A stretch of 64,000 nt of DNA, from the NCBI RefSeq assembly GCF_028368995.1, contig NZ_JAQNDL010000002.1, positions 1,440,001 to 1,504,000 of the forward strand, read 5' to 3'. Made by a program: the position numbers and the translations under genes. Positions 26,205 through 61,890 of this stretch are shown here, piece by piece (position 1 is the stretch's first letter; the number at the start of each line of letters is the position of its first letter). The stretch comes from Nannocystis bainbridge. Lineage in GTDB: Bacteria; Myxococcota_A; Polyangia; Nannocystales; Nannocystaceae. The notes under the pieces were generated by a model. The model saw only the letters and a program-made list of their open reading frames with translations. It searched no databases and was not told the origin of the DNA.

Positions 26205-27697
26205 GCCGCGTACGCAGGCAAGGGCCGGGCGCGCCGGGGCAGGGTGATGTGAGCGGCGACGAGGCGATCGGCGAGGACGATTTCGCCGCGGAGGACGACG
26301 CGGACGACGATGACGATTTCGCCGCGGAAGACGACGCGGACGATTTCGCCGCGGAGGATGACGCGGACGACGATGACGATTTCGCCGCGGAGGATGACGC
26401 GGACGACGATGACGATTTCGCCGCGGACGACGACGCGGACGACGGCGTGACGGACGCAGAGGAAGACGATGCGCTCGGTGACGAGCAGGGCGACGACGTG
26501 CCGGACGCGGAGGAAGACGACACGCTCGACGACGACGTGACGGATGCCGAGGAAGACGACGCGCTCGAGGATGACACGAGCGACTTGAACGACGCGGAAG
26601 ACGAAGACACGCTCGACGACGACGCGACGGACGCAGAGGAAGACGACGCGCTCGAGGAAGACGTGGGCGACGACGCGGAAGATGAAGACGCCCTCGAAGA
26701 CGACGCGAGCGACGCAGAGGAAGACGACGCGCTCGACGACGACGCGAGCGCCATGGACGAAGGTGACGCTGACGCCGATGTGAGCGACGCGGAGGAAGAC
26801 GACGAGAGCGACGATGTGGGCGACGCGGACGAGGATGACGCGATGGACGAGGACGCCGGCGTCGCAGCGAGTGACGCTCATGAGGTGGCGGGCGACGCGG
26901 ACGACGCGATGGACGAAGACGCGGGTGTCGACGATGAGATCGACGCTGACGACGACGAGCTCGCTGACGACGACGAGCTCGCTGACGACGACGCGTATGA
27001 GTCCGACGATGACGACGCGCACGGCCTCCCCGGTCTCGACGCTTTTGAAAACATGTCCCTCGCGCCAGGTCGCAGCCGGATCCGCTTCACCGTCGCGCCG
27101 CGGCGCAAGGCCCCGCGGTGGTTCGTGCAGGCGCTCGCGCGGCGGGTCGCTCGCGCCGCGCGGCGGCTCGGGATCGGCGGCGACGCGGCGGTGACCTGCC
27201 ACCTCGTCGACGACCCTGCGATCGCCCGGCTCAACGCCGAGCACATGGGCAAGGTCGGCCCGACCGACGTGCTGTCGTTCCCGGCCGGGCCGCTCGGGCC
27301 GGGCGAGGGGGCAGGGACCGCGGGCGACATCGTGATCAGCGTCGACGCCGTACGACGCCAGGCGCGGGCCCGGCTCGGGATCTCGGACAGGTCCGAGAGG
27401 ACAGGTGTCAAGCGCCAGGTCCTCTGGGGCCTGGTCATCGAGACCGGGCCGAAAGAGCCTGTCCTTCCGGACATGGTCGAAGGGTCTGCCGAGGCAGCGG
27501 CGGCGATCGACGAGGCGACCGTGCTCGCCGTCCACGGCCTGTGCCACCTGCTCGGCCACGACCACGGCGGGCGCGGGGAGGCGCGGGCGATGCACCGGGC
27601 CGAGCGGCGCGCGCTCAAAGCGGCCGCCACGCCCGACGTGCCGCGGCCCTACGGCATCGACGCGCGCCGCCAGCGGCGCGAGAGGAGGGCGCGGTGA
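26201..27697 (+). CDS. ybeY: rRNA maturation RNase YbeY with Asp-rich N-terminal extension and internal insertion
   Basis: PTDVLSFP, GDIVIS, HGLCHLLGHDH; GTG at 26201 overlaps the upstream TGA; alternative ATG at 27053. Confidence 0.8.
   Translation: MSRVRRQGPGAPGQGDVSGDEAIGEDDFAAEDDADDDDDFAAEDDADDFAAEDDADDDDDFAAEDDADDDDDFAADDDADDGVTDAEEDDALGDEQGDDVPDAEEDDTLDDDVTDAEEDDALEDDTSDLNDAEDEDTLDDDATDAEEDDALEEDVGDDAEDEDALEDDASDAEEDDALDDDASAMDEGDADADVSDAEEDDESDDVGDADEDDAMDEDAGVAASDAHEVAGDADDAMDEDAGVDDEIDADDDELADDDELADDDAYESDDDDAHGLPGLDAFENMSLAPGRSRIRFTVAPRRKAPRWFVQALARRVARAARRLGIGGDAAVTCHLVDDPAIARLNAEHMGKVGPTDVLSFPAGPLGPGEGAGTAGDIVISVDAVRRQARARLGISDRSERTGVKRQVLWGLVIETGPKEPVLPDMVEGSAEAAAAIDEATVLAVHGLCHLLGHDHGGRGEARAMHRAERRALKAAATPDVPRPYGIDARRQRRERRAR
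27385..27490. repeat. 14-bp-period array inside ybeY
   Basis: CAGG 27388, 27402, 27416; CCTG 27430; CCGG 27444; CCTG 27458; CATG 27472; perfect TGTCCttccGGACA at 27460-27473. Confidence 0.8.
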
Positions 27698-61253: not shown

Positions 61254-61545
61254 GGGCCCTCCATACTCGCTTTTTCCGGCGCCGAAAAGCCCTGCGACGG
61301 GCTGCCACGGCCCGCAGCACGTGCGCTGGGCGACGCGACGTCAGCTCGGCCGGCCGCGCCGGCGCCGCCTCGACCGCACACCGGAGCGTCGCCACGTGCG
61401 CACGCAGACGGGCGCGGCTGCCTCGCACGACGCGAGCTCGCCGCAGCCGCGACGCGAGTTCGCCGCGGCCCCGACGCGCGATGACTCCAGCACGCCCCAG
61501 CCGCCGCCTGCTCGATGGCGCGTGCCTCGAGACGGTAGCTCGGGT

Positions 61546-61890
61546 CTGCATGTACTCCTGAACATGCCTCGCGGGACATGCTCATACAGACATAAACAAA
61601 TCGTCATGTCCAAAGGGCCATGACCAGATGTACATGGCCGATCGATCAGATACATATGTCTGATACAACATGCCCGATAGACCATGCCCAAAGGGACATG
61701 TCCTCTAAAACATCATCGCATGCCCTATGCGACATGCCCGATCGAACATGGCTATATGGACATGTCCTCTAGAACATCCTCGCATGTCCGATGCGACATG
61801 CCCGATCGACCATGCTCACATGGACATGTCCTATGGAACATTCTCGCATGTCCGATGCGACATGCCCGATCGACCATGTCCTCTCGAACT
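61546..61890. repeat. Longest 14-bp-period array, with a 64-bp higher-order repeat; locally AT-richer
   Basis: CAT(G) at 61549, 61563, 61577, 61591, 61605, 61619, 61633; then blocks starting at 61655, 61719, 61783, 61847 (14+14+14+22). Confidence 0.92.

Follow-up and report, generated by a model that had tools for sequence, protein, structure and literature searches.

Within the 64,000-nucleotide stretch of Nannocystis bainbridge DNA analysed here (the window; contig NZ_JAQNDL010000002.1), the plus strand at 27053..27697 encodes a protein of 214 residues, counted from a conventional ATG and identified by profile score and model alignment. The product scores 92 bits against the curated family profile TIGR00043 (cut-off 45) and 79 bits against PF02130 (cut-off 25), carries the HxxxHxxxxxH metal motif of YbeY as an intact zinc-binding HGLCHLLGHDH (27533..27565, plus strand) and is predicted to adopt the YbeY fold. 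Its nearest database proteins are YbeY proteins of Nannocystis, and it is the only YbeY found in the whole genome. YbeY is an endoribonuclease that acts in the maturation of the 3' end of 16S rRNA. YbeY proteins of solved structure (1oz9, 1xm5, 7y7o) share the fold, the metal motif and the family score of the Nannocystis protein, which nevertheless differs from an ordinary YbeY by 40 additional residues between the two helices that precede the metal motif. Translated from the ATG at 27053, the linker from RRQA to HGLCHLLGHDH comprises 56 residues, as compared with 16 in the Aquifex enzyme (1oz9, HMMER alignment) and with 17 in Nannocystaceae of other genera; the translation and the Aquifex alignment thus bear out a preliminary description of the locus, which had contrasted 56 residues with about 16, and the peptide given in that description is likewise encoded. 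In the ybeY gene of G012 (L013), another loop, the one that follows DVLSF, has been extended by an unrelated insertion of ~40 residues.

Upstream of the gene, and in frame with it, lies a stop-free, low-complexity tract rich in Asp and Glu (26231..27052, plus strand). Acidic residues make up 42-57% of the 280 codons upstream of ybeY in all six array-rich genomes (see below), and 6% in G004. As one of these genomes, G001, has a CTG at the position of the ybeY ATG of the N. bainbridge genome (G000), translation may in fact begin further upstream; the tract would then likely represent a long acidic N-terminal extension of YbeY in the array-rich clade, by which Nannocystis YbeY probably departs from ordinary YbeY as well. 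The conventional ATG itself falls within a single unit of the 14-bp repeat described below (27050-27059). Many YbeY proteins of the insert-bearing clade start with MTDMSEETG, which is similar to a translated array and is possibly a second array-derived piece of the protein.

The long linker coincides with an array of seven 14-bp units at 27383..27480 (no strand assigned), identified with a genome-trained weight matrix. The genome consensus unit is the palindrome nnGGACATGTCCnn, and the units in ybeY, which start at 27388, 27402 and so on to 27472, mostly have CAGG or CCTG cores (in order CAGG, CAGG, CAGG, CCTG, CCGG, CCTG and CATG). As one seven-unit array the segment scores 58-59 bits, as against -11 to -15 bits for the adjoining 14-mers, so that the cores and the single matrix match both recover the seven 14-bp-phased junctions (27388-27472) noticed earlier. 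The array is degenerate and is absent among the matches listed by Tandem Repeats Finder. Spanning 98 nt, it encodes residues 111-143, or ~33 amino acids. An array-encoded insertion of ~40 residues had been proposed; the net excess over a textbook YbeY is indeed ~40, but the array supplies only ~33, since the linker of the insert-free sister lineage already measures 20-26 residues. It had also been proposed that the repeat lies in frame within a conserved housekeeping gene, and an intact, single-copy ybeY does carry the array-derived peptide.

The array belongs to a large genomic family. A scan of 11.05 Mb with the weight matrix, at a threshold of at least 30 bits, yields 1,523 arrays of 3-22 units at period 14, as compared with 3, 2 and 1 arrays at control periods 13, 15 and 16, and with 0, 0, 0 and 3 at periods 11, 17, 20 and 23. 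Triples of CATG number 1,005-1,670 per genome in the array-rich G000, G001, G003, G005, G007 and G010, 2-62 in the five remaining genomes of the genus, and 0-4 in 30 genomes outside it. When genes are called crudely by our own procedure (7,958 in all), 1,128 arrays fall between them and 230 well inside, the latter in 214 genes. In the window, further arrays occur at 14 places (9470, 28862, 32063, 33259, 36696, 39243, 42607, 47043, 48804 and 61544-61883); the last region, between two minus-strand genes, consists of five sub-arrays, with a spacing of 64 bp between the later ones, and is the top-scoring cluster of the genome. Simple slippage and recent copying were rejected as sources of the arrays, because neighbouring units are hardly more alike than units drawn at random. 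In intergenic units conservation is 0.92-0.98 for the core and 0.48-0.74 for the spacer. In the reading frame in which CATG would encode Cys, the share of Cys in in-gene arrays drops from 76% to 19% and that of Gly rises from 6% to 52%; this frame-specific loss of Cys and gain of Gly implies that in-gene arrays are translated.

The distribution of the family invites comparison with a mobile or expanding element, similar to Rickettsia palindromic elements (RPEs) or MITEs, which would have been inserted recently into ybeY and would vary in whole-unit steps. By the crude gene calls the placement of arrays is REP-like (they occupy 513/1,133 convergent, 394/3,030 tandem and 37/1,194 divergent gaps, and lie at a median distance of 13 bp past the stop codon), and the lengths of intergenic arrays differ between G000 and G010. 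The arrays are, however, not copies of one another: just 39/1,523 have a 28-mer in common with another array, and the units are nearly all different, the commonest being seen 13 times among ~5,400. Moreover, no Y1 transposase (PF01797) was found in 6/6 genomes that are 83-91% complete (a control profile was detected in 6/14), and neither the unit consensus nor the flanking 14-mers contain a GTAG or CGTC terminal tag.

The phylogenetic distribution of the insert in ybeY provides further clues. It is present in frame in G001, G003, G005 and G010, and is also present in G007, and is missing from the ybeY genes of G008, G009 and other genera. Of the first 62 homologues in the database, 21 have the insert, and in one the motif could not be parsed. 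The length of the insert is essentially fixed, the insert-bearing linkers measuring 54-60 residues, and exactly 56 in 14 of the 22 complete proteins (21 homologues and that of G000); those of the next relatives measure 20-26 residues (typically 23-26), and the remaining homologues have 17-19. Growth or variation in 42-bp steps, which the preliminary description had anticipated, is thus not supported: no two of the 22 linkers differ by 14 residues. In a midpoint-rooted tree of 58 rows, from which the insert was cut out and P0055 and later matches were left out, the 23 insert-bearing rows (the 22 complete proteins and the partial one of G004) occupy one side of a single branch (support 97/94), with one change in 98% of bootstrap trees. 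The insert therefore probably has a single origin, in the common ancestor of the clade that bears it. Since its bearers include proteins just 63-70% identical, whose split it predates, and since the whole-unit steps are missing, recent insertion of a mobile or expanding element is largely refuted for ybeY, and we consider it very improbable. Among the genomes compared, no close relative with an empty ybeY site was seen, and when metagenomes were scanned for the DNA of distant insert-bearing members, none of the 80 retained loci was similar enough to be of use (best identity 50%).

The array-like character of the insert is equally old. We built a cyclic 14-residue profile solely from intergenic arrays and compared it with a background of 1,478 random pieces of the proteome. 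All 23 insert peptides lie above the 99th percentile of this background, and 21 of them exceed its maximum (p ~0.0007 for the two others, G004 and P0013), so that the ancestral insert must already have resembled an array. Could ybeY nevertheless be a pseudogene, or could the insert be removed from the RNA or the protein? The frame of G007 (L006) is broken twice outside the array, by the loss of 1 nt within a G run and of another directly past the array, but both are probably assembly errors. The N. bainbridge genome has a single ybeY, frame and metal motif are intact in the 22 proteins, and features of an intein or intron are absent at the size of the insert. Furthermore, pN is far under pS (0.037/0.204 for the insert and 0.068/0.240 for the remainder of ybeY, in five close genomes whose pairs are not independent). 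We consequently give next to no credence to decay or removal. In four sequencing runs, probably of DNA, contigs of relatives run across the insert and no joints are seen, which speaks neither for nor against expression. The peptides QVLWGLVIETGPK and EPVLPDMVEGSAEAAAAIDEATVLAVHGLCHLLGHDHGGR would mark translation of the gene.

How, then, did the array come to lie inside a gene? In this genus, arrays overprint existing genes in place. In G009 (a comparison covering 1.2 of 9.1 Mb), 31 in-gene arrays could be matched to an orthologue that spans them; 9 of these show no net change in length and 5 show a gain of at least 60% of the array length; among 60 array hosts with spanning paralogues, such a gain is seen in 6. 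Both tests undercount large insertions, as these break alignments, and ybeY itself is not among their cases. After removal of one misaligned pair, 8 cases are free of gaps; in these, codons for the same residue have changed at 42/76 positions inside arrays vs 366/1,350 outside, and 139/160 base differences favour the consensus in G000. Two examples fix the direction of the process. In a Clp ATPase (L211, G000:C1:78908-78949) an array covers a conserved segment with no change in length relative to G009, and the ten identical residues surrounding GARPL have each been given another synonymous codon; in PheT (L212, G000:C3:1730088-1730129) GVKV, which is GINV in E. coli, became DMSV at equal length. 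Both the Clp motif and the PheT strand are ancient, and thus the array is the newcomer. Patchwise rewriting was also considered, and per-unit differences are overdispersed in 3/4 sets; the result is not used, as the arrays differ in age. YbeY is not the only rRNA-related enzyme to have gained residues from an array: where RlmKL (L220, G000:C3:1609365-1609448) carries six units, it exceeds the G009 orthologue by 14 residues.

As overprinting is demonstrated in the genus, it supplies the main rival account of ybeY, in which some unrelated process first extended the loop, and substitutions later turned the longer stretch into an array. The loop of the sister clade, already grown from 17 to 20-26 residues, agrees with such a first step, as do the cases just described with the second. 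However, the gain over the sister clade (30-33 residues) equals the array in length (98 nt), and the ends of the two coincide; all 23 long-linker homologues bear the array signature, including the basal and the decayed ones, and a long intermediate free of the signature is not found among the 62 homologues. We judge this two-step history unlikely, and favour a gain of the array as one block, which would have brought ~33 codons into the loop at once.

In the array-rich genomes, the nucleotides of the insert are constrained in their own right. Third positions are G or C in 18-22/28 codons within the insert vs 173-179/184-186 outside it, and five codons of the insert that end in A or T are unchanged across five genomes. 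The same holds genome-wide, in ~0.22 Mb aligned to each of two relatives: A/T third positions that match the consensus are kept in 36/47 cases vs 693/2,025 (34%) elsewhere in G010, and in 22/25 vs 520/1,622 (32%) in G003. The rare codons of the ybeY insert thus appear to preserve a DNA motif as well as a peptide, and most likely a putative protein reads this phased motif.

Such constraint raises the question of whether the peptide is a tolerated passenger, conserved because selection maintains the DNA motif, or a hairpin in the mRNA, within a frame that merely stays open. Besides the strong DNA-level conservation of in-gene arrays, the folding energy of the array RNA (-54 kcal/mol, z -5.2 vs dinucleotide shuffles) and the low model confidence in the insert (see below) are consistent with a passenger. 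The RNA fold, however, is no better than that of unit-permuted controls in 6/6 genomes (fraction 0.10-0.74), and only 1/32 pairs show two-sided change; for these reasons, a conserved mRNA structure was rejected for the ybeY array. Genome-wide, the folding gain of arrays over permuted units is only ~1 kcal/mol.

The conservation pattern of the peptide also argues against a passenger. Eight of 32 insert columns (G118, Q122, V123, L124, W125, G126, E130 and G132) are invariant in 22/22 proteins that are 63-91% identical, and V127-V129, P139 and V142 are near-fixed. At such positions of translated arrays, the residues found at W125, G126, E130, V127-V129, P139 and V142 have frequencies of 0.01-0.16; the repeat consensus from which they deviate therefore does not explain their conservation. 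This situation is not typical of in-gene arrays overall, whose amino acid identity is 216/282 (0.77) vs 0.91 in their hosts in the comparison with G010, and 93/142 (0.66) vs 0.87 in that with G003. On average the insert is also less conserved than the YbeY core (share of the top residue 0.72 vs 0.85), and the invariance across the 18 distant proteins P0004-P0021, which were compared as protein, could partly be DNA-level.

It is G004 that separates the two constraints. The 4.5 Mb of this genome hold 2 CATG triples and no match of four units to the 14-bp family, and the DNA phasing of its insert scores 13 bits vs 58-59 bits in G000. Nonetheless it retains QVLWGVLVETGP (QVLWG..ETGP), with altered synonymous codons. 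Conservation of the insert as protein in relatives that lack the phasing had been named beforehand as evidence against an origin from the array, and G004 presents this very combination; but G004 is nested in the insert-bearing clade and its peptide still matches a translated array, which indicates that the DNA pattern decayed under protein selection and not that the peptide had a separate origin. The separation of peptide from DNA constraint comes from this single genome, the assembly of which is 64% complete and ends, at a contig boundary, within ybeY. Given that G004 has dropped the codons while keeping the residues, we find the passenger explanation quite improbable, and a repeat-derived peptide that is now under protein-level selection, centred on QVLWG..ETG, the likely alternative.

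Structure prediction suggests what selection may be acting on. The conserved core of the insert (27410..27448, plus strand; residues 120-132, KRQVLWGLVIETG) is predicted to form a two-strand beta-hairpin. In a model built from 96 sequences (mean pLDDT 86, core >90, insert 61-69), strands 120-124 and 127-131 lie between helices 97-107 and 146-166; a model from the 22 insert-bearing sequences has the same strands, with an insert pLDDT of 49-54. The 96-sequence model superposes on solved YbeY structures with Z 17.8-18.9 and rmsd 2.2-2.6, the best match being 1oz9 (Z 18.9, rmsd 2.5 A, 138/141 residues aligned). The insert is placed in the loop between the two helices, in agreement with the surface-loop position foreseen for it, and its centre may thus be a small beta-hairpin on an intact YbeY core, albeit modelled with low confidence.

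We consider it probable that the array entered the ybeY loop in frame and only once, and that its peptide has since been kept by protein selection as a hairpin on the intact core. The seven-unit array would have entered a surface loop in the ancestor of the clade, as a block of ~33 codons, and the QVLWG..ETG peptide would thereafter have been held by selection on the protein. The hydrophobic hairpin might pack on the enzyme or on a partner, its loss then costing stability or binding. A further constraint, acting on the DNA and confined to the array-rich genomes, would keep the rare A/T-ending codons matched to the palindrome, most likely owing to the putative protein that reads the phased motif. 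In G004 this constraint would have been relaxed, the codons drifting to ordinary G/C-ending ones while the peptide stayed. A stronger version, which we put forward tentatively and regard as rather doubtful, is that a few substitutions (W, G, V-V-V and E) made the translation of the array a beta-hairpin that YbeY of this clade now needs and that persists after the DNA signal has gone.

Whether in-gene repeat DNA of bacteria is useful as protein has been a question ever since the Rickettsia elements. The ybeY locus offers a clean test of it, with one origin, an insert-free sister clade and a nested lineage without the DNA pattern, in a small single-copy enzyme that has a known assay and cultivable hosts; here, two constraints on the same 98 bases, on a DNA motif and on a peptide, can be told apart. 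If the stronger version is true, a chromosome-wide DNA signal, and not a gene, gave a new folded element to a core ribosome-maturation enzyme. Repeat DNA would then have given rise, in a bacterium, to a de novo protein structure that can be dated and deleted, and more than 200 other genes of the genome would provide a natural gradation between mere passengers and indispensable parts.

Outside the coverage of subscription journals, we found no literature that describes the 14-bp family, nor any on repeat-derived bacterial peptides or YbeY insertions like that of Nannocystis. Lampson and Rice in 1997 and Lampson et al. in 2002 reportedly dealt, to judge from the titles, with retrotransposed msDNA repeats in Nannocystis exedens. 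The present genome encodes five reverse transcriptases, three identical ones of group II intron type (their near-identical genes, L033, L034 and L035, lie on three contigs) and two retron-like ones. A retron-like RNA region upstream of L036 (G000:C1:2370901-2371160) lacks the 14-bp array, and its partial copies (24-72 bp, 85-100% identity) occur at ~8 other places, none overlapping an array; these dispersed copies match the above titles. An origin of the arrays from the msr-msd of this genome's retron was rejected for want of similarity. The dispersed msDNA-like repeats indicated for N. exedens in the available part of the source (PMC6868368) are thus found in the same genus as the arrays, which show no similarity to the retron of the present genome.

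Several known systems resemble the arrays in part. Intragenic REP clusters that encode 20-80 amino acids are mentioned in the accessible portion of one report (PMC3733652). The Nannocystis arrays resemble REP/BIME elements, as far as the available text describes these, in being enriched after stop codons and between convergent genes (by crude gene calls), but their consensus has no GTAG/CGTC tag, no Y1/RAYT transposase was found in the 6 genomes, and they are strictly 14-bp-phased and can form without change in length. A term search for short tandem repeats beside Y1 transposases gave 0 matches in the available text of PMC6006769. HIP1 of cyanobacteria is, from the section of the source at hand, a short motif gained by substitution in coding DNA and conserved at the DNA level (PMC5861425), and little constraint on proteins is reported for the DNA uptake sequences DUS/USS in the portion available (PMC2817400). 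The overprinted arrays and the rare ybeY codons fit such motifs, being gained by substitution in coding DNA and conserved at synonymous sites. HIP1 and DUS are nevertheless, on the same partial texts, single motifs that add no residues, whereas the Nannocystis arrays are phased and the one in ybeY added a 33-residue segment with invariant residues.

The closest parallel as regards the outcome is provided by the RPEs of Ogata et al., which the available parts of two sources present as ~150-bp elements of defined families, palindromic repeats that lie in frame in housekeeping genes with the host fold tolerated (PMC10969869, PMC3733652). The ybeY insert is likewise an in-frame palindromic repeat in a conserved gene, and related peptides occur in unrelated proteins. 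The resemblance to RPEs suggested in the preliminary description therefore holds for the outcome but fails for the element, since many in-gene arrays overwrite existing codons without change in length, and since the arrays, of 3-22 degenerate 14-bp units, are not copies of one mobile, defined unit. In the part available, a 2024 review describes as unexplored what RPEs contribute to the creation or modification of proteins (PMC10969869). Thus, while in-frame coding repeat inserts are already known, Nannocystis ybeY adds, relative to what these partial texts relate, comparative evidence of a peptide that appears to have outlived its DNA pattern, and this evidence is unusually clear.
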